Source: Ruditapes philippinarum (lineage: Eukaryota). From it: a stretch of 64,000 bases of DNA. How positions within the stretch are numbered: the first letter of the stretch is position 1; the number at the start of each line of letters is the position of its first letter. Positions 13,873 through 62,108 of the stretch are shown in pieces. The DNA is taken from contig NW_026865491.1 in NCBI RefSeq assembly GCF_026571515.1, positions 1-64,000 on the forward strand, given 5' to 3'. The translations under genes and the position numbers were made by a program. Under the pieces are notes generated by a model that saw only the letters and a list, made by a program, of their open reading frames with translations, was not told the origin of the DNA and did no database searches.

Positions 13873-15168
13873 AATGACAGTGTAAAGCCGGGCATGCGTG
13901 CACATCTTAATGATAGTGTAAAGCCGGGCATGCGTGCACATCTTAATGATAGTGTAAAGCCGGGCATGCGTGCACATCTTAATGATAGTGTAAAGCCGGG
14001 CATGCGTGCACATCTTAATGATAGTGTAAAGCCGGGCATGCGTGCACATCTTAATGATAGTGTAAAGCCGGGCATGCGTGCACATCTTAATGATAGTGTA
14101 AAGCCGGGCATGCGTGCACATCTTAATGATAGTGTAAAGCCGGGCATGCGTGCACATCTTAATGATAGTGTAAAGCCGGGCATGCGTGCACATCTTAATG
14201 ATAGTGTAAAGCCGGGCATGCGTGCACATCTTAATGATAGTGTAAAGCCGGGCATGCGTGCACATCTTAATGATAGTGTAAAGCCGGGCATGCGTGCACA
14301 TCTTAATGATAGTGTAAAGCCGGGCATGCGTGCACATCTTAATGATAGTGTAAAGCCGGGCATGCGTGCTCATCTTTATGATAGTGTAAAGCCGGGCATG
14401 CGTGCACATCTTAATGATAGTGTAAAGCCGGGCATGCGTGCACATCTTAATGATAGTGTAAAGCCGGGCATGCGTGCACATTTTAATGATAGTGTAAAGC
14501 CGGGCATGCGTGCACATCTTAATGATAGTGTAGAGTCGGGCATGCGTGCACATCTTAATGATAGTGTAAAACCGGGCATGCGTGCACATCTTAATGATAG
14601 TGTAAAGCCGGGCATGCGTGCTCATCTTTATGATAGTGTAGAGCAGGACATGCGTGCACATCTTAATGATAGTGTAGAGTCGGGCATGCGTGCACATCTT
14701 TATGATAGTGTAGAGCCGGGCATGCGTGCACATCTTTATGATAGTGTAGCGTCGGGCATGCGTGCACATCTTTATAATAGTGTAGAGTCGGGCATGCGTG
14801 CTCATCTTTATAATAGTGTAGAGTCGGGCATGCGTGCTCATCTTTATGATAGTGTAGCGCCGGGCATGCGTGCTTATCTTTATGATAGTGTACAGCCGGA
14901 CATGCGTGCTCATCTTTACGATAGTGTAGCGCCGGGCATGCGTGCTCATCTTTATGATAGTGTAGCGCCGGGCATGCGTGATCATCTTTATGATAGTGTA
15001 GCGCCGGGCATGCGTGCTCATCTTTATGATAGTGTACAGCCGGGCATGCGTGATAATCTTAGTGATAGTGTAGCGCCGGGCATGCGTGCTCATCTTTATG
15101 ATAGTGTACAGCCGGGCATGCGTGCTCATCTTTACGATAGTGTAGAGCTGCGGATGCGTGATCATCTT
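13873..15168. repeat. 36-bp minisatellite, ~36 copies
   Basis: Unit AATGATAGTGTAAAGCCGGGCATGCGTGCACATCTT; identical copies on the left, increasingly diverged to the right. Confidence 0.97.
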
Positions 15169-16734
15169 TGCAGCCTGGCCAAACACTATACTGATGGCAG
15201 CTCGATTTCTGCATTTTAGTATTGAAAGCCCTTAAATTTTTTATTTACCGCTCTATATTCATAGTAGGTCAAGTCCAAAATACCTTTTCAGCAGATTAAG
15301 GGCAATTCCATGTTTTATTCAGATATGCCACCGAAATAAATAATAGAAAGAGCATCGAAACACGAGGCTATCTGATTTGTACGAGGGGGCGTAGCCCCAG
15401 AGTATTAATCAGATTGCCGAGTGTTTTGATGTTCTTTCTCTTTTGTATCATAGCCAAACATAAAAAACACGTTCCCTGTTGTCACAACATGAAACCCCGG
15501 CAAAAAAGGAACCAATGAACGAACATATGAATATGATATTTCTGTCGCTTTCCCTTTCTCTGCCGTCACAATATGTAAACCCCAGCAAATATGAGCCAAT
15601 CAATGGGCATGCTCTGGAGTGCGGGTAACTAATACCTGCACTCTAGTTAACGCACGGTGCATGTATGTATACGATTTAACTCTGACACATTTTCAATAGA
15701 AAGGTCCTCAAACTATGATACAATAAGATGTTACAGCAATACAAAATGTGTTTTAGTAAGGATAAACTTAACAACTGAAATTTTGATGACACTGATAAGG
15801 CACATCTTGAAAAGTGAACCTGCGATGTTTTTGACGATGTCAAAATCGAATGTAATAATTATAAACGTTCGTCATTTTTAAATAACTAATTATCTGTTGT
15901 TGTTTTCTGATTAATATTCTCTGTTTAAAAAATAACAACATTAGGGTACGCTTCCTGTAAAATTAATTAAGATATGGAAAAAACATTAGAAAGCAAAATA
16001 CAAGAAGTTGAAGACGATATAAATTGAATTGTCAAGAAGTTAACAAGAAAGTTGAAGATGATTATTGATATTTGTCATTTATCGGTTATCGGTCTGGTGC
16101 GCGATGTTTGTCCAATTTATCTAAACGCGTGACGGCGTTACAAACGTCTAAAGTGTGTTTATATTTCCCGCATTATATTTCCATGTGAATTCCTTTACAG
16201 CTTGAATATCTTGACGACGCGGTTATACTGTTCGCTGTTTCTCCATTGAAACCTTTACTTTGTGCTTTATTCTCTTCATTCCAGGAGCTGTAAAGGCGAC
16301 ACAAAACATAACATAAGGTCATAGTTGTGAATTTAAATTGTAAACAACTTGTTTGATCCTCACAATGAGTTTGTCTACTTAATTTAATAGGATGGTGTAT
16401 AAATTTGGAGGGTATCTATAAGAGGTTTTATCTAGACAGGGATCTTGCTCTTCTATTGGATATAGCTGACATATCAGGAAACAACATTAAACATGCAAGG
16501 GAGGGCGCACGTTATTGAACTTTGTTAATCAACCTCTTAACATAAAATAACTCGCAACAAGTGGAGGACTTATAAACGATTAGTAGATGTTTATTTATTG
16601 TTTGGAAATATTTTTTTCATACCAGATTTCGCAGCTGAATTATTCAAGTGTTCATTATCCATTCGCTCTACAACAAAATATATTTAGTGAATTTGTAGAA
16701 ACATAAACAAAGTTACGCTTATTTTCTTGCCAAG

Positions 16735-17368
16735 ATGAATTCATATATTTGTTACTTTATGTGTATCGGTGCATTATCATGCATTGCACGTATTACGGCC
16801 ATGTCACAGTGTTCCGTAAAGGTGCCAGTACCTGACATATCGTTCTGTGATGCAACAGGAGCGCTGGAAGAAAAGGTCGACGCGAACATTTATGAGACAA
16901 GCGGACGTGTAAAGGCGGTTCAAGACTTTCAATACGATGCTTTTGAATTATTTAACCATCAGCTGACGACGTTATTAGACGATTCAAAAAGCACGGATAT
17001 GAACATTCATGATGTTGAAGAAGAAATTTTAACTTTAAAACGATTTGTGAGTCGTGTACTGTCGGACTCGGTTAACGACGAGATACCAGCAATCAGCGGA
17101 ACGAGACATAAACGTGCTGCATCTGTAAATCAAACCCAACAACTTCTGAACTCGGCTAAAGCAACCTTCCAACAAGAACTTGCCAAAATTACAAATAAAT
17201 TGGCCATTATTTCAAGTTCTATCGCTAAAGAAGCCGCTCAGACTACAGCTATACACACGAAACTTCTGAACGAACTTACTTCAAATCAACTAACACTAAC
17301 GGCTACAGAGCAGCAATTAAACGCCCTTGATACAACAATCAGAAATGTCCTTAAAACAACAAAACCAG
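16735..17368 (+). CDS. gene B exon 1
   Basis: AAGATGA start; MNSYICYFMCIGALSCIARITA...VLKTTKP; CAG|GTACAC donor, phase 1. Confidence 0.85.
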
Positions 17369-18800
17369 GTACACATGTAGTTTGTTATCATAAAAATATA
17401 CTTATTCTAAAATAACAGTTTAGAAAATAATCATGATTCTCGAATTCCAAAAATGAACCAAGTCAAACGTATGATAGATAAGGGTAAATGTTAAATTATA
17501 TTTAGTTGTAATATAATGATAATATAACAATAATGAATGACATATATAAGTTAGATAATTTAACGTTATTTTGCCGACAATAATGAAACAATAATTGGTG
17601 GGAACACCGGGAAAATGGAAAAACAAAATACATTTCATTGCTGCATGTTCTCTGTAAAGACTTGCCATGTATACATACTGCTGTTCTTTTGTTTTTACAA
17701 ATATTCCCTGTTTATAAACCCCATGTTTGTATCATCTATGATGCTCTGAGAGAATTTGATTTATATTTGAATTATATCAGAAAGCATACCTTAATGATAT
17801 GAATCAAATATATATCTGATATCATATTACCGTACTAGCAGCTATGCTACTGAAAAGAAATATTACCCAGGCGTATTTATATGCAAACACGTCGCATCAC
17901 TGTCATAGCATCATTACGTTTTTTAAATATTTGTTTTCATGTTTCATTTGATGATGTATCATCACATTCAAATTTAGAATAATAGAATTTCACTCATTGA
18001 ATAAAGTGGTATGCATTGTAGTTGTGATAACTTGTTAAAGTGACATGATGCTCATCTTTTTCATCTTATTGCCAGTACAATAATACTGAATTGCTTTCAT
18101 CTGTTTAAATATATCTGATACAGTTGTTGTAGATTGACATTTTAATTTAAATCATGTTCTTTATTGATATTTGATAATTGATATTGATATGAAATGAATG
18201 AAAATACATGTGCTCAACACTCAACACAGATACCTACAACATCAGCAGTGGGTCTTTGTCCGAAAATTGCAATTTAATATTAAACATCGGGGACACGTCT
18301 AGTGTCATGTAGGGTCTAATGGTGATTTTATGCGAAACATATCTCAGCCTATACGAAAATAAAGAACAAGTTAAAATATCTAAATAAAATATTGATATAA
18401 AAAAGTTGAAACATTGTAGGTGTAGGCGGTGTGAGTCTGTCGGCAGTGAGGCAACAAATCACGGACCTGGTAATAAACGCCAGTGTAGCAGAACAAATTA
18501 CACAACGACAACTAGACAACATCGAAAAACTGGTAAGAACAAAACATTTAAATAACACTAACTTTTTAGTGTGTCTGTGTATGTTGGGAGGTAAAAAAAT
18601 ACCTCCATGTGTTAATGTCAAGCGGTGACTTGAAAGCTACTTGGTGAAGAAAACTCTAATTTACCCGAGCATGCATCGAAAATAATAGAAAATACATGTA
18701 ACAGTTTATTCATATCATTTATATATTTTTCAGAAATCAAGATATGTTATTTGTGTTTTCACGGTTGTATGTCTTTATGTGTTGCCTTCTTTAAATAAAG

Positions 18801-28600: not shown

Positions 28601-31600
28601 CTGTAATGTAAATAAAAAAATTTATTGTTCACAATGTCATAGTTTTAAGGGAAAATATTTTCTTTTTCAGCCTTAGCCATGTTTTACAGAAGCCAAGGTT
28701 CATTATTACTCTCACTGGCTCTGACAATAGAATATACAGTAACTTTTTAGACAATATCCCTCCATACATTATTTTCTAGTACAATCAGGAATCTGTTTAA
28801 AACCTCAGATCTTCTGTGACCTAGTAAATAGATTCTGCACAAATAACCCGCAATGTAACATCCTGGGTGAGATTTCAGACCTGACATAGCAAGGTAAGAA
28901 AGATTCAGTCACAACCGTAACAACTCACCTGTAGAGGCCCCTGCTCTCTCCTTGTCAATATAACATGAAGAGTAAAGCAAATTTCAAGCCTTGTGCTGTT
29001 TACTTACCTAGAATAAAGTTATATTGAGCTAACTGCGAGTTTCTAACTTTTTTATTCAAAGTATTGGAGGCATCAAGTTCTGCATCACATAGAAATCCAG
29101 CATCATGGATTTGTTGTTTTACCTGTAAAATAATCAACACACCTCAGGTAAACTAATCAACTGGTTCATAATTAAACTCATTATTAATAGACATGTGACA
29201 TAAACAGCAACCTAACAGTATGTCTATATTAATATCATTAAATATATACTGTATGAGAATATCTAAATACCAATATTTATTATATTTTCAAATTCATGAA
29301 GGTGCAACCTATGTAATACAAAATATGACTTCAATAATTTGATGTAATCAAAAAATCGAAAGGGTAGTGATAATGCAGGGTTCATACAGACATCCAATGC
29401 CAAAATTCAAGGACTTTTTAAGCACTATTTAAGCATGTATTCCCATTTTTAAGCACATTTGTTGCACATATATATCGACATAATATTCAACCTAAGAGGG
29501 ATAGTTTATTCAGCATTTTTTCTTGAATTATACAAATTTTCTGGCCAAATTAAGGTTTTATAGAAAAGAACAACAAAGGGTGCATCAAATACAAATTAGT
29601 TCAAAACAAGTGCAATTTGTCAACTTATTGTTACCTTGAGCAAAGTTTAACATTTCAATGATTTTGATACTAAATTGGATCTTTTTCTTATTTTGTTAAC
29701 TGTTGATTTTTATCGACACTATGTCATTCAATCATTTTCAAGCATATTTTCAGCAAAAGCACTTTTTAAGCACTTTTCAGACAGTAATCAAATTCAAGGA
29801 CTTTTAAGCACTATTTTACATTTTTAAGCACTTTTTAAGACAGGGACTGAAATTTAAGCACTTTTTAAGACTGTACAAACCCTGTTTAAATGACAATGTA
29901 TAAAGTTTGAAATAAACTACATTGTTTTATCTAAATTTCATATGGTACGCTTTTCATTAGGTTAATCAAACAACCTACACTATGCATGTAATGTGTATAA
30001 AGAACTAGAACTCCGCGAGTCAGATGTGTCGCCTTGTGAACAATGTAGTTTAGGGGAAATGGCCAGGACAAAAATGAAATATGAAAAATAACAAAGGGCA
30101 ATAACTAAAAAAATAATACGTGCAGAGCAGCAGTTTCTGTACACTGCACTTCTTATCAATAAGATCTATCATTCTATGATGTTTCAAGTCCATAGCTTTC
30201 ATACTTGAGGAGAAATGACCAGGACAAAAATAAAGTAAGAAAATCAACAAAGGGCAATAACTCAAAAATAAGAAATGCAGAGTATCAGTTCTTATGCACT
30301 GCACTTCTTTTTAATGAGATCTATCATCCTATGAAGTTTCAAGTCCATAACTTTTATACTTTCGGAGAAATGGCCTGGACAAAAATAAAGTATGAAAATT
30401 AACAAAGGGCCATAACTCAAAAATGAAGAAATGCAGAGTACCGATTCTTGTGAACTGCATTTCTTAATAATGAGATCTATCATTCTATTAAGTTTCAAGT
30501 CCATAGCTTTTATACTTAAGGAGAAATGGCCCGGATAAAATTAAAGTATGAAAATAAACAAAGGGCAATAACTCAAAAAATAAGAAATGCAGAGTACCAG
30601 TTCTTGTGCACTGCATTTCTTCTTAATGAGATCTATCATCTTATGAAGTTTCAAGTCCATAGCTTTTTTAGTTGAAGAGAAATGGCCCGGACAAAATTAA
30701 AGTATGAAAATTAACAAAGGGCAATAACTCAAAAAATAAGAACTGCAGAGTACCGGTCCTTGTGCACTGCACTTCGGGTTATTGAAAGAAGCATGCATAC
30801 CAAGTTTGAAGTCAATCAGACTTATAGTGACTGAGTTATGCTCCGGACAAGCTTTAGCGGACGCCGACAAAGACACCGCCGACAAAAGTAACCCCTATAT
30901 GTCACCTTTTCAAGGCGACATAATAAAGGCAAGTTTTCTATATACAACAACTATAATGCCGAGGATCCTACACTGAACAACTGGTATGACTTATTTGTCA
31001 CCATCTTGAAGCTGGCATGCATTAACGGTACTAAATTATGGAAATTAACTAAAAGAAAATCAAAGCCCAAGTTCAAATTAAAATGTAAATATAGTTTATT
31101 TCTGTCATAAACTAACAAGGAGAATATTTCCTTTTTCAACTCTAGTCTGGAACTGACAATAATCTTATGCATTGCAGTCGCATTACTGACCCTTCAAAGC
31201 CGGATTCTTATAGAGAATCCAACTAAAATTCCCACCATTACCAAGAGATGGGTTCAAGGTTAGAATGTTACCTTACATCTGATGGCTTTGTGAATAATTC
31301 TTAAATATACATAAGACAATTTGAAATTTAAAGCATGGAAACACGATTCAACAAATTTATCAAACATTAACTTTATTTAATTAATTGAATATACCTTCAA
31401 AGCATAATCATCAAATGCTGGAGCCACTGGTATTACTATAGCTTGCCTTGGGGACAACCAGAATGGCCTGAAATCATCATTATATCGCTACTATTATCAT
31501 TATAAATATATCCAAATTAAACCAAACGTGTGCTAAATGTCAAAATATGATTTTATCTAATTATAGGCTGTTTTTCTTCAAGTTTTATTGTGTATGAAAG

Positions 31601-34600: not shown

Positions 34601-37600
34601 ACAAACTTCAAAAAATCTAAACAACCCATAATTTCTTGCTCAATCTGTAAAAGAATAAATATTCTCATGCAGGAGGTGATATCTATGACAACAATAAAGA
34701 ACATTTACATTCATTGATATGTATAAGTTTGTTCAAGGAACAAATACAAGGGTATGTCTATATGCTTCATACACAATCAAACTAAAATAAATTCTATAAA
34801 TTAAAAGGTTATAAGGCTGGGGGAAACAAGACATCAACACCAGGACAGTTCACATATTTATTTAAACTACCGATTTTGGGTAAGATATACCCTTTATCAG
34901 GTTGTAAACAACTAATACAGTCTGTAGGCAAATCTAATTAACCAGACTTTGGTGCAAGCTTCTTACTTTGATATCAAAATTAGCAATTAAATCTAAAGTC
35001 ACATTATCATGATATTTTGGCAAGTTTTAATTGGGCCCTGTCAGAATTTCTTCAGCTTTAGCTTTTGTCAGTAATTCCAGAAACTGAAGATTGAAAACTA
35101 TTTTAAAAGGTTCAAGAAAATTGTTAGCTTAGTAATACCTGTTCAGGTGCACAGAATATGTGAGCATCGTCTTGTTGGAATCTTCGTACACGAGTCAATC
35201 CACTGAGAGCCCCGGACAACTCGTTTCTGTGTAGCACGCCAAAGTCAGCCATTCTCAATGGTAGTTCTTTGTGCGATCTGATACGGTGGTCAAACATCAA
35301 ACTGTTAATAGATAATATCGTATTAAAGGGTATGAAGCTATATCTTATATACAAGAGCTGTCGGAAGGACAACACGCTCGACTATTCTAAGTGCTTGATA
35401 GTAAAAGAGCCTTGATAATGTTAAATTTTTTAAGTTCACAAAAGGGCTAATTTTTTTTTATAAATTCAAGTTATAGGCCTTGAAGAGAGTCTAATTATAC
35501 AGTATTGGCTTGACTATTCGGAAGGTAATGTCACAAGGTTGTTTTATTGAGTATAATAATACTAATTACCTATGAATACATAAATTTGACAGAAAAGGTA
35601 CAAAGGCTTGTTATTAAGATGTTTTATTAAGTAAATCACAGCTTTATTATTATTAATGCTTAAATTGTCCCAAAAAAGGCACAAACCCTTCAGTAGTTAT
35701 TGAGATAACAGCTTACAAGCAAAACTTTACAATGAATTTCTAAGTTAAAAAAGGGGAGAAAAATCAGCCTAAATGCAAGATAGAATTATGGATCTTTGTC
35801 AGTGAACTACAATTATGACTCTAAATGCATATGTGAAGTTTTAAATAAATATCTTTAATAGTTATTGAGATATGTAAAACTTGCATGTAAACATTAACCA
35901 AGAGACTAAGTAGAAAAGGGGATATGAATCAGCCTTAATGCAAGATAGAGTTATGGAACTTGGTCAGTGACATACAATTATGACCCTCCAATTATGACCC
36001 TACGTGCATGTGTAAAGTTTCAAGTAAATATCTTTGAAGACCTTTAACCTTTAACCAAAATTTCTAAGTTCCAAAGGGGCATAATTCTGTCAATATTGTA
36101 GGCAGAGTTATCCAACTTGTCAATCTGATGTACCTTGTTACTATAAATAAGTATTGTAAGTTTCAATTGAATATCTCAAGCAATAATTGAGATATTTGAC
36201 TTTACAAAAAACTTAAACCAAAATTTCTAAGTTAAAAAGGGGCATAATTCTGTCAATATTGTAGGCAGAGTTATCCAACTTGTCAATCTGATGTACCTTG
36301 TTACTATAAATAAGTATTGTAAGTTTCAATTGAATATCTCAAGCAATAATTGAGATATTTGACTTTACAAAAAAACTTTAACCAAAATTTCTAAGTTAAA
36401 AAGGGGCATAATTCTGTCAATATTGTAGGCAGAGTTATCCAACTTGTCAATCTGATGTACCTTGTTACTATAAATAAGTATTGTAAGTTTCAATTGAATA
36501 TCTCAAGCAATAATTGAGATATTTGACTTTACAAAAACTTTAACCAAAATTTCTAAGTTAAAAAGGGGCATAATTCTGTCAATATTGTAGGCAGAGTTAT
36601 CCAACTTGTCAATCTGATGTACCTTGTTACTATAAATAACTATTGTCAGTTTCAATTGAATATCACAAGTAATAATATAGATATTTGACTTTACAAAAAA
36701 CTTTAAGCAACGCAGACGCCGACGCGGACGCCGACGCCGGGGCGACTACAATAGCTCTCATATTCTTCGAATAGTCGAGCTAAAAATGTATCAACAGTAA
36801 AGTTATATTGTTTCCATAATCTTGTAATTGATTTAATAAAGTTACTAAGACTGTCACTGAATCTGTAGAATAAAGATACCTTTTCATGCCATATGAAAAC
36901 AGAAGATTTCCCAAAATATGTCCAAAATGTTTCTCCAACTGCAAACAGTATTACTTTAGAATATAGATCTAGTATAAATTGTATCTGAAATTACGTACCA
37001 ATGTCCTGGACAATTCATAGGTTTCAGGCCATATTTTTCTTTTTCTATATCAAACTTGAACATGCAATCCTGAAAAATTACCGATAGTTTAAATTAAATT
37101 AAGGATTATCCTATAAAATCTTGTTAATACACTTAAATACTAATACAAATCAAATACCATCCAGCAACTTTGTAAAGAGACAATTTTAAATATAAAATGG
37201 GATAAAATGGTATAAAGCTATATCTAATGTAATATTTTTTCATAAAATAAATGAACAGTAAAGTTATGTTATTTCTATAATCTTATGGTGAACTTACAGA
37301 GTAATGTTGCCAATGGCCTGAAGTTTCCCATAACTTATGATTGTATATGTTTGGTGACACAACCTCTTGAAAGCCACGTTTTCTGTACTCACTCTGTAAT
37401 ATATACACATATATATTAGTTCAATATACATATACAGTATATACAGTCAAGACTGCCTTAGGGACCCCCTGATTTCAACAACTCCCTGTCTTATCCGACC
37501 TTGTTTCAGTCCTCCCAACATATTTTGACTGATCAAATATCACAGATAAACAAGCAATTCAAACATGGAGGTTCGCCACAGGAGAACAAGGTAACAGTGA

Positions 37601-40600
37601 GTGAGATTCTTGGAGCGACAAATTCGGTATTATTTCCGTATGATGATTCAATAAATCTATCACAGTCTGTGTTCGAATCCCCATCCATTTCTAAAAACAA
37701 TAGAGAACATACACATTCTCAAAACACTGCCAAGATATCAAAGCCCCCACAGGAGACCCCTCAAGATTTGAGATCAAATATGGCGACCACAGATCAAGGT
37801 AACGGCGCAATGTCAGAAAAAGAGCAATTGACTTTTCTATGTAATACTGTGAGGGAAATAAAATTGGGTCAAGAAAATATGCGTATATCGTTTGAAAAAA
37901 AGTTTGACAATTTAAAATCGGAACTAATGAGTACAATTAATTCGAAGGTGGACACTTTGAAAAATGAGCTCAAATTTGATATCACTCGAGAATCCGTGCG
38001 CATTGACGAGATGTTAACAAAAGTTGATCAGTTGAAAAAAAGAATGGTTTCTTTTGAGCAGGAAAGAGCGTCCGCGCATACAAGCGTTAACGGTACCTCG
38101 TTTGGTCAAGGTAATTCAATCAGTGACCCAAATCGAACATGCACGGCCAGCGGAATCCAGGTCACGGAGTTCGAGGACTTAATTCAGAAAGCACAGGAGC
38201 TAGTGAACTCATTAGGCGAAGAGGTCCAATCAAAAGTCATTGTAACGGATGCAATTCGACTACCGGCAAGATTTCACGATAGACCGCCGATATTGAAATT
38301 TAGTGTAGAAACACTAGAGCAAAAAATCCTGCTGTTGAGAAATAAGCCCAAACTACGTTTCAGTGCTGAATACAAACATGTTCAAGTACGTAGTAGTAAG
38401 TCACATATCGAACGACTTATTGAAATGAATGCAAGAGCAACCATTCGTAATTTGCCCCAAGGACGATCGTTACGCGTCGATGCTAGAGGACGCATCAAAT
38501 CGAGAGTACAGCATGAAAACGAGAGATTGCTTGGAGATAACGACGCACGTGCCGAAAATGCACGTGACCAAAATACAAACGCTGAATTTTAGGATATATC
38601 CCGGCCAAGGGCAATTCGGCTTGCTCATATCAACGTTTGCGGATGGACAAAAGATAACAATGATCTCAGAATAAGTATAATAAATTATCTACAAAGTGAC
38701 GTTATTTCGGTTTGTGAAACGCACCTTAAAGATAATATCGGATTAACAGTGCCTGGATATACGTGGATTGGTTACAATAGACAAGAAATTCATATAAATG
38801 CGCCAAAATCATCAGGTGGCGTTGGGTTGTTTGTGAAATCATGGATTTATCAGGAATACGAAGTAACTGTTATTGATAAATCGTTTGATGGAATTTTAGG
38901 AGTGAAATTCTTGCATAAAAATTCGGAGTACGAGTTTATTGTGTTTTCATGCTATTTGCCCCCAGAATGTTCAGCCCGTGGTCGTGACGCTTCTAGTTTC
39001 TTTGCACATTTATTATCGCAAATATACATAAATAGTGACAGTGATGGAATATTTTTGGCAGCTGATTTCAATGCCCGGATAGGATCATTATCGGATATAA
39101 TTAATGGTTTAGACAGCATTCCCCAAAGACACGTGTTAGATAAGACAATTAATCAGCATGGGCATGACTTTATTGAATTTCTGAATGATGCTAAATTTTG
39201 CATTCTCAATGGACGATGTGAAGTGGCCAACAATGACGCTTCTAACGGTAACGTCTCTATAGGCAACGGTTGGACATCGGTTTCACGGCGCGGAAAAGCA
39301 GTCGTTGACTATATCTGTGTACCACATGATCAATATTTAAAGTGTTTTTCGTTTGACGTCCTGTCAATGCAGTCAATAGTAGATAATTGCGGATTACATG
39401 GTTTACTTGGAGAAAGGTCAAGGTTACCCGATCACTCAGCAATTATCACACAATTTTACGCCGCGCATTCAGAAAATGTGGGTCAACAGTCGTCTACCGG
39501 TCAGGAGATTAAGCGATCGCGCTTCAAAGTAAGAAATGTACCGGACGATTTTATGGAAAGTGATTTAGCGAGGATGGCAATTATTGACTGTATATCGAGA
39601 ATTGAGAGCTTCCGGGAGACACAGGATAACATGGACAACATTTATGATCATTTTTGTGGAATGATATTTGAAGAAATAGACAGAAAAATTCCTAAACAAA
39701 ACTGTATTATTAGAGACAAGAGGCATAAAATTCGAAAACCATATTGGAATGAAACTCTGTCAGAACTATGGAAATTACAAAAACAAAAAGAACGTGAATT
39801 TCTGCGTTGTAACGGTACTCGACGTGTAAAATCTACATTACGTCGTGAATATACTATAGCAAGAGACACGTTTGATAAATCATTAAGTCAGGCTGAACGG
39901 GCATATAGAAAATCAAAGTCGGAAGAAATTGAAACAATGACAACAAAAAATCCTAACGAATTCTGGGAGAAAATAAACAAACTAGGCCCAAGAAGCAACA
40001 AATCGATCCCAATGGAAATTATTAATGGTGACGGCCATGTTACGTATGATGAAAGAGAGATTCTGAATAGATGGAAATGTGACTTTGAATGTTTATATAA
40101 TGGCACGGATTCTAATGATTTCAACAGTGAGCATTATAATCAGGCTAAAATACACAAGTCAATGTTGGAGAATAATATTAGTGATCCATTATACAACCAA
40201 AATGTAACACTTAACGGAAATATTACGTTGACGGAAATTAGTGAAGTTGTTATGAAAGCTAAATCCCGTTCAGCATGCGGTTACGATGAGATTCCGTATT
40301 TTGTTCTGAAATGTCCAGCTCTAATTGCCATCTTGAAAGAACTATTTCAGTTGATATTTGATACCGGCATTATACCATCTATATGGAGGAAATCAATTAT
40401 ATGTCCCATTTTGAAAGACCCAATGTCAGATCCACGTGTACCATTACATTATAGAGGAGTCAGTTTATTGTCATGTGTAAGTAAACTCTACACTGGTCTA
40501 GTTAATAAACGGTTGACAAAATATCTCGAAGAAAATGACTTACTGGAAGATGAGCAAAACGGCTTTAGACGCAATCGATCTTGTGAGGACCATGTCTTTT

Positions 40601-43600
40601 CGTTAAGCGGTATAATTCGCAACAATAATGAAGTATTTACATCCTTTATCGACTTACGCAAATGTTTTGATTTTATAGACATTGATATGTTATTATACAA
40701 ATTACTACTAAATGGCATTGACGGGAAAATGTACACAACAATTAAGAGCATTTATCAGAGATCTACGGCAAGTGTGCGTCTAAATAATAAGTTAACAGAC
40801 TGGTTCACATGTACTACTGGAGTAAAGCAAGGAGATTCGGCTTCCCCGACATTATATTCCATTTTCGCAAATGATCTAGTGAAGGAGATCAATGACCTTG
40901 ACCTTGGATTTAACATAGACGGAAGGAAGCTTTCGATGTTACTATATGCAGATGATATTGTATGTATCGCAAAATCTGAGGAGGACCTCCAACGTATTCT
41001 AGTCAAAGTTCGTGATTGGTGTAGACGGTGGCGAGTAATTATTAATACTGAGAAGTCCAAATGTATTCACTTCCGGAAAGGACGATCAGCACGTACGGAT
41101 TTTCAGTTCAGAGTTGGTGAAAATGTACTAAAGTTTGTTGACAGCTACAAGTATCTTGGCGTAACCTTTCGCAGTAACCATTATTTCACCATGAATGCGG
41201 AATTGCTAGCTAAAAGTGCAAGTCGAACTCTCGGTAAAATTATTGCAAAAATGCGATAAATAAAAGACTTTGGTTGTAAAAAATTCAAAAAGCTTTATAA
41301 TTCATGTGTCGTGCATATAATGGACTATTGTTCAGGTGTTTGGGGTTTTAAAAAATACCAATCGCTTGATAATGTACAGCACCGTGCTATTAGACACTAC
41401 ATGGGAGTCCACAGATTCGCACCTATTCTGGCAATCACGGGAGACATTGGATGGATACCAACAAATCAAAGACGATGGATTAACATGATACGAATATGGA
41501 ACAGGGTTATCACAATGGACGAAAATAGAATCACAAAACACGTATTTAACACGGATTACCGTAATTGTCATAATAATTGGTGTAGTGAAATCAAGGATAT
41601 ATTTTCAAAAATAGGCCTGGTAGAACATTTTAACAATCGTACGCCAGTGAATTTAATGATCGTTAAATCGGCTATTGAAAATCATTATAAGTCAGAGTGG
41701 AGCGAGAAATTGACTCAATTTTCTAAACTCAGAACATATAGACTCTTTAAAAATAACTTCGAGCAAGAATCATACCTTAAACTCAACTTAAAAAGAAACG
41801 AACGTTCATTACTCGCACAAATGCGCTGCGGTATATTACCAATTCGTGTAGAAACAGGAAGATATGTCGGTGAATTACCAGAACAGAGGCTATGTACATT
41901 ATGTGATTCAGGATCTATTGAGGATGAAATGCATTTCGTTTTAAAATGTAGCTTGTACCATGATATAAGACTCAACCATTTAAGTGAGATTTTTTCAAAT
42001 GATCAATTAACCCAATTTACAGACAGTGACAAATTTGTACATATTGTTCAGAATCACCCTAGAAAACTAGCTAGATTCTTAGTATCGGCATATATGAGGC
42101 GTAGAGACTATTTGTTTCATAGACACTGAAACTGTGATTACTTATTCATTTAAATATTTACTATTTTTTGCACTGTATTAGGACATTTTATGACATTGTA
42201 ATCTGAACTTTATTATCATATTTTATTGATATACATTAAGGTTTGAACAGTCGTAACGGTTTTTCTATAATCTTTGATAATCCCTTATTTATCACAGTAA
42301 CTGTATGTTAGAGTTATTATCGACTTAGAAATAGTATAGCATGATTTTTATGAACTATAAGATATAATGCATTAAAGGGACGTGGTCAGTTATCTTTAGA
42401 TTACAATTTAAGATAAGCCATCAATGAACTTTGAATAATGTTAAATTTTCGTTTTCGTTTTAGTATTGTTTAAAGTTAAGTACTTGGAACTTAAAATCAT
42501 ACCACGTTAACATATTCAGAACTTTTCAATAAACGTGTTTAATTTGTACATGATGTTACAATCATATTAAGATATTGAGATAAACCATAGTGAAAGGTTC
42601 TATAAACAGGTGATACATATATTTTATGAAAAATCTGTCATAATAATTCAACGTTTTCAAATGATAACAAATCTTGAATGTAACTTGTAAATTTTGGGCA
42701 TTCGATTCTTATTTGTCAAATATATTTACGGACAACATTGAATTTCTTATACAGTACTTTCTTGTGGTTAAACTATTTAGAATAAATTAGTATTTCTTTT
42801 GAGCTAGAAGATAAATAAGATCTTTCTTCTTTTTCTTTTTTTTATCTAAACATACCTTTTATGTTGTTCACGTGTTTTCAGATTTATTGTCTTCATGTTG
42901 TTTGTGTCTTATAGGCCCATTGGGCCGGGTGTATACTATTGTTTATACATGTCTTGTTTGTTCATTGCTTGTATGTTTACATATGACACATTAATAAAAT
43001 ATTTACTTACTTACTTACTTACTTACTTATTTTGCTATATAAATGGTCTGAATTATACGAATCCCTGTCATATGTGACAAGCGACCATAATTGTCTGGTC
43101 CCAATGCATTGCTTTGTCTGATTTAAATGACTTTCACACATTTTAATTGTCTGTTTATCAGGAATGTCAGACATAATCCCCTTCGGACAAAATCCCCTTC
43201 ACCTACCCGGACAAAATCCCCTTCATGGGTGGACATAATCCCCTTCATTTTTTTGCAAGGCTGGACAAAATCCCCTTCACTACCCGGACAAAATCCCCTT
43301 GTTTCATAGGTTTCTAATGTATTATTATGCTCCATAAAAATTGATGAATAATGAACTTTTTTTTATTTATTTATAATTATGTATCAATAGTTACCTTTAT
43401 TTAGTTTAGAAGTTTTCATTAAAATTATGGTAAATTATCAACTGCATAACACATATTTGATTAGGCAATTTCTTTAATAGTTTTAAATTGATTAGTATGA
43501 AAAACATTTTTATTAGCCAATAATTGTTTCATTGATTGTATAAGTTGATAATTCTAATTGATAGATACTATCCATTGTTACAATTTCTATTGATGAAAGA

Positions 43601-49600: not shown

Positions 49601-52600
49601 ATGTGATTGGATAAACTGTGTTGGTTTTTGAATCTTTATATCATAACTTGTTAAACAACAATTATAAATGAGATTTTTTTATTTGAAAACAGACAACAAA
49701 CTAAACTGTATCCCTAAATAATCCACTTTATTCCATTATAATCAAAAGTTGTTGATACTTTGAATACAAATTTGTACAAATGTCAAGATTGTCTCAATTT
49801 GATTGTCTCAATTTTCAGAAAATTTAACATAAATGAGAGCAGCAGTTTAGTGGATAGAGATCCACTGACATAAACACTTACCTGATACCTTTAGCAACAT
49901 CATATGGAGTAGTCTCCCATGCCTTGCCCTCAACAACCTTCCCATCAGGCAGTGTCACATTGATTGGTTTACGTTCCTGTGCTGCCACCCAGTCATCATA
50001 TTCCTTTTTTAATTTATCCCATAATACTTGTCTTGATGCAAGAAATTCTGGTGGGGGATCCATCTAAATACAATCAAACTTTATATAGGCCAGAAACTCT
50101 ATTAAAGTATCAAATAGGCCAATTACAATGTAACAAGTACCATGTTCACAAGAAAGGTTCAAGTTAAAATATATAAAGCTAGCAAGAATGATACAGTGGC
50201 TGAAAGTAGCAAAAGTATTTTGTACAACTATCATTTGACTAATAACTAGAAATGTGTCCATAGGACACGGGTGCCCCCACTGCGCCACTGTTCTGTCAAT
50301 CTTTTTACTAAGTCAAGGGAAATAACTCTACAAATACTGGATAAATCCACAAGCGAAACCCCAGGTGCAAATCTAAAATATGCTGAGCAACCTGCCCATA
50401 AGGTTTAATGACTATGTCAAATCCTTTTTGAGAAACTTGCGACTTAAGTTGAAAATTGCAAAAATTTTCTAAGTGAAGGGCAATAACTCTAAAAATACTA
50501 TATAAATCCAGACGAAAATACCTGGTACACAACTGCACATGCTGATCAATATTCCTGTAAAGTTACATGACTCTAGGTTAAATACTTTTTGAGTTACGTG
50601 TGACACATGTTGAAAATTGCAAAATTTTACTAACTCAAGGGCAATAACTCTGAAAATACTAAAAATATCCAGACGAAAATACCCAGGTGCACAACTACAC
50701 ATGCTGATCAACATTCCTGTAAAGTTTCATGACTCTAGGTCAAATACTTTTTGAGTTACGTGCGACACATGTTGAAAATTGCCAAATTTTACTAACTCAA
50801 GGACAATAACTCTGAAAATACTAAAAATATCCAGACGAAGATACCCAGGTGCACAACTACACATGCTGATCAACATTCCTGTAAAGTTTCATGACTCTAG
50901 GTCAAATACTTTTTGAGTTACTTGCGACACAAGTTGAAAATTTCAAAATTTTACTAAGTCAAGGGCAATAACTCTGAAAATACTAAAAATATCCAGACGA
51001 AAATACCCAGGTGCACAACTACACATGCTGATCAACATTCCTGTAAAGTTTCATGACTCTAGGTGAAATACTTTTTGAGTTACTTGCGACACAAGTTGAA
51101 AATTGCAAAATTTTACTAAGTCAAGGGCAATAACTCTGAAAAAACTAAAAATATCCAGACGAAAATACCCAGGTGCACAACTACACATGCTGATCAACAT
51201 TCCTGTAAAGTTTCATGACTCTAGGTCAAATACTTTTTGAGTTACGTGCGACACAAGTTGAAAATTGCAAAATTTTACTAAGTCAAGGGCAATAACTCTG
51301 AAAATACTAAAAATATCCAGATGAAAATACCCAGGTGCACAACTACACATGCTGATCAACATTCCTGTAAAGTTTCATGACTCTAGGTCAAATACTTTTT
51401 GAGTTACGTGCGACACAAAAGTGAACGGACGGACGGAAGGACGGACGGAAGGACGGACGGACGGACGGACAAGGGTAAATCTAAATGCCCGCCACTAACG
51501 TGGGGGCACAAAAAGAATAAGGAAAGTGAAACACACGAAACAAAGTGGGTCAGGTTTCCATAACTATCATTTGAAAATAACCATCTATTAAATAGGTAAT
51601 ATTCTAACTTATGTCTGATTTTAATATTAATTTCTACCCAGTTTAACATTTAGTACCATGGTTCCATAGAACCACTGACTGCTTAATGCTGTTCAACTTA
51701 ATACTGTGCATTTTGTCTTTAAGATCAAGAGAAGGTTTAACTCAGAAAGCGAACTAATGTAACTATATAAACAGCTTACCGGTTTTAGTTTATCAACCTG
51801 ATCACCAGCAGCCTCTGCTTTAGCTTTCTTCCCTTTCTGTGACTGAAAAAAAACAAGAGCAATAAAACACTATTATACTTTTTTTTTTTGGAAAACATTC
51901 TGTGCATTATTTATCACTACACATCTTAGACTTCAAAACTCAATGTTGTACTATTCGGTAATTCCTGATAATAGTTTCTGGAATAGTATATAAATCTAAC
52001 ACCTGGTTCTTTGAAAGCTTTCTTTTTTTTCTTGGTTGGGTTTTCAGGGATTTTTTTTTGGTTATTTTATAGCCGTTATTGAGTCATATTCCAATTTGAA
52101 AAAGTGTATTATTTTCCCAATCCACAGGAAAATATCCCCAATTGAAAGTTACAAATTTGAATTTTTTTATCATAACTTATTAATAACAATTATAAATGAG
52201 ATTTTTTATTCGAAAACAGACAACAAACCAAACTGAATCTCTCCATAGTTCACTTCAATTTTAATCAAATAGTGTCACGTGAGGTGAGTCAGGTGACCCC
52301 CAGCGTAGTCACCTCACGTGTGAATTGATGTTACTAGTAATCGTAAATATTTTATTTATCGCTTTAGTTTGCATTGGAAATTGATGTTCATTTTATTCTC
52401 TGTTTTACAACAAAATACTATTTTAAAGCAATCATATTCAAATTGTTAGGGAATATAGAATAAAATATAAAGAATTCCATATCTATCAATGAAATTTTCC
52501 GTGTCAGTTCTAGTCAGGCGCATACATTTTTGGCAATCTGACCCCTATGTATTTTTCAGGTCTAAAACTTGTATATAGTACACTAAAGAAAACAGAATGA

Positions 52601-55785: not shown

Positions 55786-57003
55786 TCGCTGATTTCGTCA
55801 GTAAGCATGCTTTCAATCTTTAAAGGAGTATGGGAATATTTATCATATGAATTACGGACAGGGCGGACCGTGAGACAGGGCGGACCGTACCAGGGCGGAC
55901 CGTGACTCGAGACTAGGCGGACCGTATTTTTGGACAGGGCGGACCGTCACTCGAGACGAGGCGGGCCGTGATTTAAAAAAGTATTTATATGTGGACTAAT
56001 GTAATTATTGATGTTTTTGTTCTTCGTATTGATATTTCAATTCAAATATTCAATTAAAAATATAAAATACAGTAAGTTTTAAAAGTTCTTTGATGTGTCT
56101 TATTGTTTAATAAATTCTATTTCAGTGTTCATTTTATTTCATGTGTCTGTGCTTATTATTAAAATTTTAATAAGATAGTTTTGTTTTTCAAATAATTCAC
56201 TTCATTTTTTTGTTATTGTGTTGAATTGCAAATAATTTTAATGTGATGTTATTCGTTATTATTGTTATTTCGTGTATTGTACAACAAAATATTTTTTTTT
56301 ATGTGTCTAATTGTTTAATAAAGTTTATCAATTTTAGCAGCGTTAGCGCCTTATACAAACAATAACATTGTTATATCCCGATAATTGGTCAATTATCACT
56401 TGCGTAAGTCGACGCAGTTACAAATAATTTCTTGAGAAATTTTTTTTAAACTACTCTAATATACTGAAACAAAAAAGAAACTCTCTCCAAGTTTGAATGT
56501 AGATATGATTTTTAGATTTATTTATTTCATTTCCAATAGGCTTATAAGCCCATGAGGACAACATATTACAAACATAATATATATGACATGACAGAGTAAT
56601 GCATGATAATGATAATAATACATCTCTTTTTCAAATATTTGAAATATAGGAGAAGGTTGAAACTCAACCTTAAAATAACTTCTCCAATAGAGGAGAAACA
56701 ATTATTCAATACAATACATTATAATATATATGCAATCATGGGAATAGTACTCCAATTTTTAGTCAACCTTTATCGAAATCGAAAACAAAAGAGAAAAGGT
56801 CAACTCATTGGCTATTCGTGAAACATCATCATCAAAATAACTGTAGATTGATTCAAAATATCATTAATTTTTTTATTCTTTTCTCTTTGAAACTTTTAGT
56901 ATTGAATTTTATATCTTGAAAGGAGTAATATTTCCACTGTGCTGTGGCAACCAAAAGAAGAGAAGAAGAAAAATGCTGAGATATATACATTATTTTACAT
57001 GTA

Positions 57004-60000
57004 TCATTGCCCGTACATAATGTTATTTCTAATAGCAAAAGCGTTGTATACATATATTCCTAAATTTCTAATTACAGTTTTGTTATCAGATTTAATCAAT
57101 TCTAAAAACTTAAACATATTTGGTCTATTCCAATAGTATCTTGGTATATACTTTTTCCTTAAATCATTGTAAAGATAGCATTCAATTACAAAATGAAATT
57201 CATCCTCCAATAACCACATAAGTTACATTTCCTTTCATTTATTTCAATTCTTACTGGACGTGCCCATCTACCTGACTCAATTTGTAACCTGTGTGATGAA
57301 ACACGCAATCTAGATAATGCTTGGCAAAATTTATTCATTGAAAAACATTCAAGATATGGCTGACTTTGGAAAGAATGCTATGTTTCTGTAAAATAATGCT
57401 CTGCTTGAAACATTTAGTCTACTATGCCAGTTTTGAATAAATTGATCTGTTAATCTTTGTTTAACTGAAGATAAAAATAATTCAACATCACCAACATTTT
57501 TGCTCTAACCAAGCATCATAAAAACCAAGAGAACATAATAAATTTTTAACATTGAACACCAGTTTACCTTACGCTCATCTCGTTCAAAATCTAATTTTTA
57601 ACATGTTATAGATCAAATAAATATACTTATTTTCGCGTGTTCTTAATATCTTTACCAGTATTTAACAATGTTCATATGATGAATAACTTGTAAAGAGGTT
57701 CTACCCAGTTCTCCATAAACGAAATCATTTTGGGTTGTTTTTTTCACCACACCAAGAATACTTTTACAGAATTGCAAATTAACTCTTTCTATTGACATAT
57801 CATTAGTAAACCTAATATTTCACTACTATAATTTAAAATTGGCATAACTAATTTATCAAATAAATCGAGTTTATGTCGAGGTGGTATGTAAGTAAATTTT
57901 TATATAAGTATTTGTTTAACTTAAAACTGCTTTCTGAGCTTGGCCCGCCAGGGTGCTTTGAGCTGTGCTTAAAGACCCACCACAAGTGAACACTACACCT
58001 AAGTATGAGAATTTGTTAACTATGTCAAGTATTTCACCATTATAATAAAACAAAGATCACTTGGTAAACGTCCACCTTTTCCTAAAAATCATTACCTTTG
58101 TTTTTGATATGTTTTACTTTTAATTTCCAAGTGTTTACAATAATCATTTAAAACATTCAAACTATGCTGTAATCTTCAGGAGAATTTCCAAAAAGAACAA
58201 TATCATCTGCATACAACAGAAGGAAAATTTTAAACATATCTATATCTATACCATCTGAACCTCTATGTATAACGTATCTTCTAAATCATTTATGAATAGA
58301 GTGAAGAGCAAGGGAGATAAACACTCACCTTGTCTTACACCCAAGCATACATGTATATTCTTCACTAAGATTATTTAGATATTTAACACGTGATTTTACA
58401 GACTCATACATTGATTTAATGATATCTAAAATATTACCTCTAAGACCTAATTGTACAATTTATACCACAAATTGTCCCTAACTATGTAGTCAATGCTTTC
58501 GTAAAATCTACAAACACAGTGAAAAGCTGTTTACCTTGATTTAAAAAAATGATTTATAAGTCCATTTAATACAAAAACATTATCAATGGTACTCATGTTT
58601 GACCTAAAACCCGCCTGAGCTTCTATGTATACATTGTAATTTTCTGCCCATGATTTTAAATCTATTATTTTATAATACGTGTAAAAAGCTTTCCTAAAAC
58701 AACTAAGAAGTGTCACCCCACGATAATTTTCGACATTATTTATATTACTTTTTTATGCAATGGTATTACATAGCCATCAGACCATTTTTTCTGGAAAATA
58801 ACGGATTTCAAAAAAATTTTATTAAAAAGTTTATGCAAAACAGGTATAAGAACATCTTTTCCTGCCGTGAAAAATTCATTTAATATTAAGTCTGGTCCAC
58901 AGATCGATTACTTTTCAATTGTTTAATGGCATTTATTATTTCGTCAACAGATATCATATTATTAAGTTCATTAAACATAACATTAAACTCATGATTCTCG
59001 TATCTCTCATTGAAATAAGAGTACATCTTCATCCGGACTGAAAAAATTGCCATCCGGATTGTTAACCGCCTTAAAATATTTTTCAAATTCTGATAATGGT
59101 ATATTTGATTGTTTTACACCTGCTAAACCCTTTAACATAGACAGTAAATTTTTGCATTTTTTACTTTTAGCTTGTAACAGTTTTTGAAGTATTTTCATGA
59201 TCAAAATCAAATCTACATTTCCGTAACACTTTCTTATATTCTGTTCTAGCAGACACCATATTTACTCTATTACTGTCTGTCGGCATTTGGCGAAAAAATA
59301 TTCAGCATGTTTAAAAATATCTGTTTTTTCTCATAACAGTCATCATTTATACCAGGGATGATTATTTTCTGACCTACTAATTATATTTTCATTATTACTA
59401 ACATTTAAATATTTTATACATGAAGGCGTTGCCACTTCATTGATAACCTTTTGAAAAAATCACTCACGCATAAATCTATGTTTTCATGAGACATACATGA
59501 TGATATTTCATTTGATAGATGTTCAAGTTTATGCTCAATCTCACTATTTTTTAATTTTTCTAAAAACTGCACTTTCCTATCCGAATCCCAAACATATTTA
59601 CAATTAATTGTTTCCTTTTGTTCATATGGCTCATTTATTGATACATTTTCAACTTTATCAATCTTCAAAGTACATGACACAAGACAGTGATCTGATAATA
59701 TATTCGGGCAATCAATATCAAAACTATCAACATACTTAAATAATTCTTGTTTACATAATATATAGTCAATAACACTACAACCCTGATTGTTAACGAATGT
59801 GTATTTACCTATGTCGCAATCATTTCTAGCCTACCATTCATAATTCTCAAACCGGTTTGCCTACAAAAATCTAACAATAATAAGCCATTATTATTCACGT
59901 GACCATGATCTTGTGATCTCCTTGGTATTTCATTGTCACAAGTATAATCATCGGGCAATACATTTATACGTTCTAAATCAACATTGTCATTTGCTACATA

Positions 60001-60533
60001 ATCAGAAAGAGTAGAAGTTCGTGCGTTATAATCACCCAACAAGAAATAGTAACTATCGCTGTTTGATTTACTTTCAAACATGTAATATAGAGTCAATGAG
60101 TCTATCAAAAATATTATTTTCAACTAAAGATTGTCGGCTGCTTCCATCAGGCAATACATAACATAATCCTATATATACATCTTTACTAATGTTTAATTTT
60201 ACAGACGATAACTTAACCCAAAGTATATCGTCCTGACTAATATAAATAACGTGTCATCTGAAACAAGATCATTTCGTACATATATGATAATCCCCCCTGA
60301 ATTTCTTTTACTGTTACTTTTAACTAATTTTCTATGCAACACAAAATGTTCAAAAATTGTCTTTATCTAAACTTGAAAATTCATTCGTCCATGTTTCAGT
60401 AAATAATACAATATCATTATTTTCGAAAACATTGTTCAAAAAAATCAGTATTTAACTTGTTTTTGTGCGTTTTGTGACTAGTCTTGTATGTTCATCAGGG
60501 CACATCTAATCGAACAAACCTTCTCCAATCGTC
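57004..60533 (-). pseudogene. LINE B ORF2, multiply frameshifted
   Basis: APE, RT and CCHC motifs are spread over short ORFs in the expected order. Confidence 0.85.
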
Positions 60534-62108
60534 CTAGCTTTTAACCTCCACTCCTCCAGGTATACGCGAGCGGCCTATTTATAGTAACTGGGGAAGTCCT
60601 GTTCCTACCCACGTGATTCACTACGATTGTATGGTTTGACGATTGTGACCTCTTAACGCTACGGTTGTTTGCACGTGATAAATGTGTAGTTACTTTTTGT
60701 GTATTTATATTCGAGGACGAAATTTGGGTCATGTCATTCATGTTTGGATTTTGGCTATTTTCATTTGTGTTTATATTTGTGCAGTGATGTTTCGTTGGGA
60801 TGTAGCTGGATAATCTGCATTTCGATTAAGTGAACCTTCTTGGGATAACTTTGAAGTTGCATTCAAGGTAAGTTGCTCATTGTTACTATCATTTTCTGCC
60901 AATAATTGTAAGCTAGTACTTGTTAGAACAGCTATTTCTGAAATAGGCGTTTCCCATTTTGTGATTTTTCGGGAATGTATGTTGCATCCTCAGATTGATT
61001 TGTAGTACACGAATGTTTATTTTTCGTTTGAGTTTGAATAGATTTTCCATGATTTTGATTAAGTTCACTCGTATTTAATAAGTCCGATAAATGTGACATG
61101 TTACTTGGTAATTGTCTTTGAAATGTGTTTGGATCTGTGTCCATCTGCGGAACTCTTCGGGTCGAGTCTGGCTGGTGTATTTCAGTTTCCATTGGTGATG
61201 ATATTGGCCCATAGTTTGATGCCCTGTTGTCTGGTTTAGCTTTGTTGCTGATTATTTCCTCTTCATTTTGGGGAGTAGAGCTTTGTCCATGGTTGCTGAT
61301 AAAGCCAATATCTTGTAATCTATCGTTACGCATGTAGAAATTCCAATCTGGAAATTCGTCATGTATCACCCTCCCATCAGCGACTATCTTTGCCGGATAC
61401 ACAACGTTTACTTTAGAATGTGGATTCGAAATTCTGTAATTTTTATACTTTGGCCAAAGCCTTGATCTTGCGTTTTGTATTTCTTTCGGGTAATCAAAAT
61501 CAACCGAAATACCAGGGACATCTCTTAGCCTGTTAACTCGGCTCATTATCAGTTCAACATCACCATAGTCTCGAAAGTTAACTATAATTGGTCTCTTGTT
61601 AAAGTTTCTGCCTGGTGCACGTGAACCAAGTCTATGCGCTCGTGCAATATATATGTCTGTATCATAAATATCTAACCTGTTTTGCAGTAAATCTTTGATG
61701 ATAAATTTGCAATTTTCACCTCTATTTTCGGGAAATCCACGGAATACTAGGTTATTTCTTCTCGATCTGGCTTCCACGTCTATCGATTTATATGCCAAGG
61801 TTTTCAGTAAGGCTGTCTGGGCGTTAGTAACATTTACTACCTGGCCAACTTTTTCTTTCACCTGAACTAAAGTCTTTTTGAAAATTTACTATTCCTAAGC
61901 TACAGGCTACTTGTTCGTCTCGGATAAATCTCATTTCATCGAACATTAACAACAGTTTTTCATCAATAGAAGATTTCATAAACTTGTTTCTGTCGGTTCT
62001 CATATCTTTTTTACTGTTTTCAATCTCATTCACACTTTCCCGCTCACTCAGTATTTCAAAATTGTTATGTACGGGTACTGAAAAAACTGAATTTAACTCC
62101 ATTTTCAC
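60534..62108 (-). pseudogene. LINE B ORF1 (L1-type RRM), frameshifted
   Basis: ORF fragments 61824-62108, 60932-61861 and 60541-60741 in shifting frames. Confidence 0.8.

Follow-up and report, generated by a model that had tools for sequence, protein, structure and literature searches.

The clade of LINE retrotransposons to which LINE A of the window belongs (the window being the whole stretch of 64,000 nucleotides that was analysed) quite probably makes its endonuclease/reverse transcriptase (RT) as an ORF1-ORF2 fusion by UAG readthrough, probably stimulated by an RNA duplex. Taken separately and judged from comparative sequence data, programmed UAG readthrough that gives the ORF1-ORF2 fusion is highly probable, and a long-range duplex likely serves as its stimulator. 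The features of LINE A are the following:

37527..43029, + strand: LINE A copy (RTE superfamily, probably RTE-X), 5'-truncated, delimited by alignment to the L260 copy and by loose read ends
37528..38589, + strand: ORF1 with coiled coil, RRM and CTD, L1-ORF1p-like (structure model and Foldseek)
38590..38592, + strand: single in-frame TAG in the context UAG GAU, a Beier-Grimm type III hexamer
38593..42129, + strand: ORF2 with APE endonuclease, RT and a C-terminal CCHC-like motif (Pfam and frame reading)
38593..38599, + strand: unpaired spacer (+1..+7) from stop to duplex; pairing at +4..+7 is no better than permuted
38600..38612, + strand: proximal arm with core CCCGGCC (+8..+14), the predicted pairing partner of the 3'-UTR element
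42911..42931, + strand: distal element about 75 nt upstream of the tail, consisting of the hairpin GGCCC-AUU-GGGCC (42914-26) and a GGG flank
43003..43029, + strand: (TTAC)n 3' tail, from the sequence

An independent insertion, L260, is 98.6% identical to LINE A, with the identity confined to 37527-43021. Because L260 extends further and carries the ORF1 AUG, LINE A, which is without the 5' UTR and the first ~13 ORF1 codons, is called 5'-truncated. Loose read ends pile up at 37526/7, its 5' border, and a short high-copy repeat with many loose read ends (37440-37526) abuts this end. No target-site duplication was identified for LINE A. For ORF1, Pfam gives no family over the cut-off, and a PDB sequence search with the ORF1 profile returned coiled-coil noise and nothing else; the best Foldseek matches of the ORF1 model (37780-38589, mean pLDDT 86) are human L1 ORF1p (E 4e-4). 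In ORF2, Pfam places RVT_1 at aa 619-859 (E 2e-36; RT at about 40447-41169) and, below its cut-off, Exo_endo_phos at aa 14-163.

The initial annotation had described ORF1 and ORF2 as one frame across a single UAG, with an ORF2 that has no early AUG, and both descriptions hold. A 376-codon stop-to-stop frame closes with the TAG at 38590-38592 and the same frame is then open for 888 codons, followed by a TAA and by 289 further codons up to a TGA. This TAA (41257-59) inside ORF2 is private to the window copy; a sense codon stands at 41257 in 11 of 14 raw reads (presumed RNA), in three contigs and in the sister copy L260. The junction TAG is identical in the window copy and L260. The APE motif-I Asn is codon 14 after the stop (38632-34) and the first in-frame ATG of ORF2 is codon 259, at 39367. 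Since the Asn precedes that ATG and is essential in Zorro3 and L1 (PMC1965478), initiation at 39367 would cost the protein its endonuclease.

The junction was surveyed in 25 DNA matches, 110 of 150 protein matches in the own genome and 77 metagenome loci. After removal of 5 copies without the motif pattern, 163 motif-I copies formed 83 clusters, of which 8 were excluded, namely, the near-duplicates L018 and L184, and L094, L102, L142, L148, L162 and L183, which looked frame-broken or lay outside the two spacing groups (L148 has an ATG directly after the TAG, and L183 has four ATGs). The 75 families kept, 37 from the own genome and 38 from the metagenome, fall into group A (13-20 codons from stop to Asn, 55 families) and group B (7-8 codons, 20 families).

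An in-frame stop lies 7-20 codons upstream of the Asn in 153 of the 163 clade copies examined. At family level the junction stop is TAG in 67, TAA in 4 and TGA in 4, and TAG-G is found in 58/75, compared with 22% TAG and 4.3% TAGG among out-of-frame stop triplets. The upstream frame is open for at least 100 codons in 63/75 families, and the frame is kept at all ten spacer lengths (7, 8 and 13-20 codons). The TAG is not a private nonsense mutation, as TAG-G stands at the same place in 4/4 copies of the window family, and the same stop across genome and metagenome copies rules this explanation out for the clade. A reassigned host code is likewise ruled out, since all three stops terminate ORF2. 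Terminal ORF2 stops are TAA in 10, TAG in 3 and TGA in 1 of 14 families, whereas the junctions of the same 14 families have TAG in 13 and TGA in 1. Evidence against readthrough comes from the four TAA families, as TAA is a weak readthrough codon; in a tree of 36 long elements, all retrieved for this analysis, they sit nested among TAG families.

One family, L213, has a sense codon at the junction, two letters from TAG, and thereby a single 1432-aa frame; its sister L214 (71% DNA identity) has TAG. Such fusions appear to be rare, because none of the best 150 ORF1 profile matches exceeds 549 aa, and the search yielded no longer ORF1-containing proteins, which is weak evidence. No relatives of the clade were found in viral contigs or in the first genome-contig scan. 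As regards database records, the LINE contigs L213 (JBEVXV010000632.1), L214 and L215 are binned in a bacterial MAG (Sedimenticola) and probably stem from the DNA of an animal host; L213, which has a 40-nt tandem repeat at its end, bears the annotation of a bacterial reverse transcriptase. The database gene models P0064, P0071 and P0204 link ORF1 to the endonuclease, probably via invented introns or corrected stops.

ORF2 might instead be expressed from a spliced or internally started RNA, with TAG|G as 3' splice site, but this is highly improbable. TAG|G does fit an acceptor, and the junction of Tca2 contains an internal promoter (PMC2194720). Against splicing, there is no pyrimidine tract (T 0.18-0.19 at -20..-4), the AG is absent in 8/75 families, and no joint at 38593 occurs among those listed, while three contigs cross the junction; an internal transcript, for its part, would have no AUG.

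The question whether most copies have an AUG before the APE domain was answered in the negative, as none precedes the Asn in 71/75 families. An ATG does lie between stop and Asn in 4/75, e.g., 7-9 codons past the stop in L071, L158 and L180, and these families count against readthrough. The codon right after the stop is mainly GAN, GGN or GTN, which are not start codons. In the L071 family the ATG stands 8 codons after TAG-A in 4/4 copies, yet 12/13 positions pair with the 3' element, and this family is a possible intermediate towards reinitiation. For the clade as a whole, AUG-independent in-frame reinitiation or stop-carry-on, in which ORF1p would be let go and the same ribosome, positioned by the duplex, would start again on ORF2 to give a separate ORF2p, is distinctly unlikely. 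It draws on the unconventional termination-reinitiation proposed for L1 and on SART1, which needs structure downstream of its stop-start site (PMC5972666), on the existence of the TAA families, on the group B stop, which abuts the first strand of the endonuclease, and on some near-cognate codon before the domain in 44/55 group A and 6/20 group B families. However, no start-codon place is shared (CTG, GTG, TTG or ACG in 11/55 and 3/20 families), scanning reinitiation does not need the frame, and both the strong TAG bias, unlike true ORF2 ends, and the natural fusion L213 speak against it. In addition, an unrelated LINE clade in the same genome has the usual Met before motif I and ORF1 in a different frame in all of the roughly four families seen (4/4) among the top 30 matches.

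As stimulator, a local GGGCAA/UUGCUC stem in the GC-rich segment after the stop had been put forward. This stem is formable in the window copy, but it is complete (6/6) in just 1 of 55 families, most having 2-3/6, and two members of the window's own family score 4/6 and 5/6. The stretch 38590-38680 folds worse than shuffles (z +1.69), no conserved local structure was detected past the stop (mean z 0.01 and 0.32 versus recoding), and the junction has no Rfam match. Neither a local H-type pseudoknot of the gammaretroviral kind nor a large stem-loop presenting the proximal element, as in tombusvirids, was found. The readthrough proposal itself is well supported by comparison, i.e., by the frame, the stop identity, the lack of an AUG and the natural fusion, while its proposed stimulator is not.

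The GC-rich segment is conserved, though as the 5' arm of the predicted long-range duplex rather than as part of a local stem. In group A, at least 5 of 6 positions of the +8..+14 motif match in 44/55 families, compared with 12/550 control windows, and Arg at codon 4 is encoded by CGN in 20/21 cases versus 42% elsewhere; throughout this group of 55 families, it is as RNA that the motif is fixed. Local pairing of +9..+14 with the motif-I codons for Gly-Trp was also considered and was dropped in favour of the 3' partner. It came first of 735 windows in complementarity, with weak covariation (z 1.35), 19/36 at the variable pair versus 15 (p 0.09) and a mean pair probability of about 0.05, and L214 is without these Gly-Trp codons.

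In LINE A, the arm core CCCGGCC (38600-06) and GGCCGGG (42923-29) are exact reverse complements; the latter comprises the 3' strand and flank of the 3'-UTR hairpin, and the arm is the best of 64 ORF2 18-mers against the UTR. The distal hairpin has a predicted energy of -9.3 kcal/mol and the duplex, which would open it, one of -25.6 kcal/mol; the role of the hairpin is putative. Across the clade, 3.5-4.6 kb separate the stop-proximal arm from its distal partner. A degenerate pattern of the distal element has 174 exact matches in the genome, and its reversed control 0.

For the 22 group A families with 3' sequence, positions +4..+21 were compared with 63 control ORF2 18-mers for pairing with the own UTR. 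The arm beats all 63 controls in 15/22 families and is beaten by at most 2 in 19/22; it ranks 5 of 63 in L155, L139 and L214 show no good partner, and the rank in L213 rests on a 126-nt UTR. Arm-UTR pairing is stronger with self (-20.0 kcal/mol) than with non-self (-16.9 kcal/mol; p 5e-5). In 18 families, where the element was located by an arm-independent pattern (L165 being shifted 3 nt by hand), 115/126 positions pair at +8..+14 and 79/126 at +15..+21, the latter versus 69.6 permuted (p 0.002), permutation p-values in this study being too small because the families are related. Sliding the partner along lowers the pairs from 194 to 54-135, and synonymous recoding of the arm gives -13.6 versus the real -22.9, with 0/1000 recodings as good. 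Two-sided changes occur in the divergent families L165, L170, L155, L174 and L176, and the core +8..+14 is conserved rather than covarying (p 0.05).

A second element in the window, LINE B, represents a lineage with a different arm:

56510..62000, - strand: LINE B, degraded LINE, ends approximate; RT about 25% identical to LINE A
60536-34, - strand: LINE B junction TAG, with arm 60526-17; family with in-frame ORF1-TAG-G-ORF2
56649..56658, - strand: distal partner of the LINE B arm, AACCTTCTCC, made up of the 3' strand of a 3'-UTR hairpin and its flank

LINE B has many frameshifts and stops, and five copies elsewhere in the genome are 91-99% identical. In this lineage the junction TAG is present in 16/20 loci (10 families); of the remaining four loci, 3 have a broken frame or were wrongly anchored, and the other carries a sense codon, its frame being broken as well. 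LINE B families have a purine-rich arm from +9 that is complementary to their own 3' UTR, and for the L280 family, which has a different arm, the partner sequence was predicted beforehand and then found. A helix of 10-12 bp from +9 (in one case from +8) is predicted in 7/8 families of the lineage having a 3' end, with 70/70 pairs at +9..+18, a length that shuffled UTRs attain in 0-3/40; no good partner was found for L288. Two-sided changes occur at +9, +10, +13, +16 and +18 and include G-C to C-G swaps.

In group B, a 3'-UTR partner was found in 1/10 families, and the partner, located after a scan, lies in the last codons of ORF2. There, 80/90 positions pair at +9..+18, in 9/10 families, and recoding of both sides gives -7.1 versus the real -13.9 (0/1000 as good); the pairs are conserved, and covariation is not significant (p 0.22). 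L084, L106, L111, L115, L097 and L121 have a group B 3' element, TCTCTTATAA-hairpin-GGC, 3750-4100 nt past the stop, which resembles the group A GTGACTTATA-hairpin-GGG and is not group B's pairing partner. The three lineages, then, have three unrelated sequence pairs, and the offset of the predicted helix from the stop (+8/+9) is shared.

This shared offset bears on a fairly unlikely explanation, in which readthrough stems from the UAG-G context alone and the duplex has a different role, be it in RNA folding, in cis preference or in recognition of the template. The fused L213 still retains a 9/10 complement to its arm just past ORF2, so the duplex may serve something besides readthrough; one mismatch is often retained at +11 or +12, and the partner overlaps a 3' hairpin, the kind bound by ORF2p in zebrafish LINEs (PMC4176376). 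On the other hand, a helix from +8/+9 in three lineages of unrelated sequence, independent of the distance to the endonuclease, speaks against this explanation, and the type III context is weak on its own (PMC13517186).

Duplex-guided A-to-I editing, by which a fraction of the transcripts would carry UIG (Trp) in place of UAG, is very improbable. Editing of UAG to UIG occurs in hepatitis delta virus, each of the three stop codons can become Trp through editing, and a duplex is near the stop; the stop, however, lies 7-8 nt outside the helix, and no A>G was seen at 38591 among the reads listed (raw depth about 7, presumed RNA, X1-X3), a weak observation. Reinitiation, editing and splicing are less likely than readthrough.

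For duplex-stimulated readthrough, a sequence of steps can be proposed. Most ribosomes would stop at the UAG and release ORF1p. The helix would sit at the mRNA entry channel of the UAG-paused ribosome, as does the MoMLV pseudoknot, and a few ribosomes would insert an amino acid. A ribosome reading through would strip the helix and free the 3' hairpin, the likely template-recognition site. As its passage frees the hairpin, RNAs whose 3' end is intact would be the main source of ORF2p, which would be delivered to them in cis. By analogy, the chances of such a switch or cis role of the 3' hairpin are about even, and the broader reading, an end-to-end RNA switch over a whole branch of the RTE superfamily in which the 3' end triggers readthrough and is then freed for template recognition, might equally well be right or wrong. 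In zebrafish LINEs, ORF2p binds a 3' stem-loop (PMC4176376). Counter-evidence comes from Tca2, which likewise carries a stop in frame but whose isolated junction did not promote readthrough when assayed in yeast (PMC2194720), and a junction-only reporter may show nothing in the present clade either, cf. CIRV and Tca2.

How ORF2p is made from a two-gene RNA, what sets the ORF1p:ORF2p ratio and how LINEs prefer their own RNA are old questions for which few elements have been studied. The present clade offers an answer that spans all its lineages, can be tested, and comes with precise nucleotide positions and with compensatory pairs that occur in nature. If true, full-length RNAs alone would make ORF2p, which would provide an RNA-level mechanism for LINE cis preference; it would also mean convergence with plant tombusviruses and extend long-range readthrough signals to animal retrotransposons. 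In practice, automatic gene prediction truncates ORF2 of these LINEs or joins it wrongly. A literature search that left most subscription papers and Repbase Reports uncovered turned up no account of UAG-G readthrough in the clade and none of a LINE in which a long-range duplex acts on readthrough; Repbase Reports, the source of the RTEX and Proto2 descriptions, may mention the in-frame stop. Readthrough in a LINE has already been suggested, for Paramecium (PMC5405496), and what is new here is the long-range pairing.

Other features of the window include a 36-nt unit repeated 36 times (94% match) at 13873-15168, with long open frames on both strands and Pfam matches that look spurious, and a 238-codon frame at 16699-17415 (+) with a signal-peptide-like start and a coiled coil, probably a first exon of a gene for a secreted host protein. 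Units of 156-163 nt form three arrays, at 30052-30775, 36049-36710 and 50303-51418, two of which run into short GACGCC or ACGG repeats, as in bivalve Helentron/MITE-like satellites.

The clade is probably RTE-X, with Proto2 as the alternative. ORF2 has the APE endonuclease and RT of RTE-X elements. Some RTEX families have an esterase in ORF1; here ORF1 consists of coiled coil, RRM and CTD, with no esterase. The nearest named proteins come from bivalves, and a medaka protein is 41% identical, so relatives of the clade reach fish. In the bivalve library (Table S7 of PMC10294476, which also notes confusion between Proto2 and RTE-X), S.grandis_24, _37, _126 and _137 are all listed as RTE-X; in the first 400 letters, read by eye, _24 and _37 have an in-frame TAG-G before motif I, and the 5' ends of _126 and _137 translate to ORF1-like peptides.

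Among known systems, L1, SART1 and Zorro3 share with the clade a bicistronic LINE RNA and the L1-like ORF1 fold, but their ORF2 starts with an AUG close to the end of ORF1, which is required in Zorro3 (PMC5972666, PMC1965478) and absent here (71/75). In Paramecium non-LTR Group 3, for which LINE read-through was suggested from consensus sequences, ORF1 and ORF2 also share one frame; that group, however, is one ciliate clade, and the accessible text names no readthrough signal (PMC5405496).

The UAG GAU hexamer is that of WDSV (epsilonretrovirus), and a helix after an 8-nt spacer and a structural protein fused to RT recall MoMLV (PMC13517186). The type III context requires downstream structure, with the MoMLV pseudoknot at the same offset (PMC13517186); in the clade, UAG plus G is present and structure from about 8 nt past the stop is predicted computationally. 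Unlike in MoMLV and WDSV, there is no local pseudoknot, the helix is closed by a strand kilobases off, and the type III hexamers listed in the accessible text fit exactly in just 19/75 families. No protease able to cut an ORF1-ORF2 fusion was seen in the clade.

The closest parallel is the tombusvirus CIRV, in which readthrough depends on base pairing across 3.5 kb to a shape-switching 3' replication element; this switch has been suggested to weed out truncated genomes and to promote replication in cis (PMC3234231). The clade differs in being an animal-genome retrotransposon without a large stem-loop after the stop, with a linear arm directly at +8/+9 and a predicted partner in the LINE 3' hairpin or ORF2 end. 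As in the PRTE-DRTE system of CIRV (PMC3234231), a UAG-G separates a gene for an RNA-binding or auxiliary protein from the polymerase gene, and, in the predicted pairing, a stop-proximal element is joined over about 3.5 kb to a putative 3'-terminal replication element, with a possible switch, quality control and cis preference.
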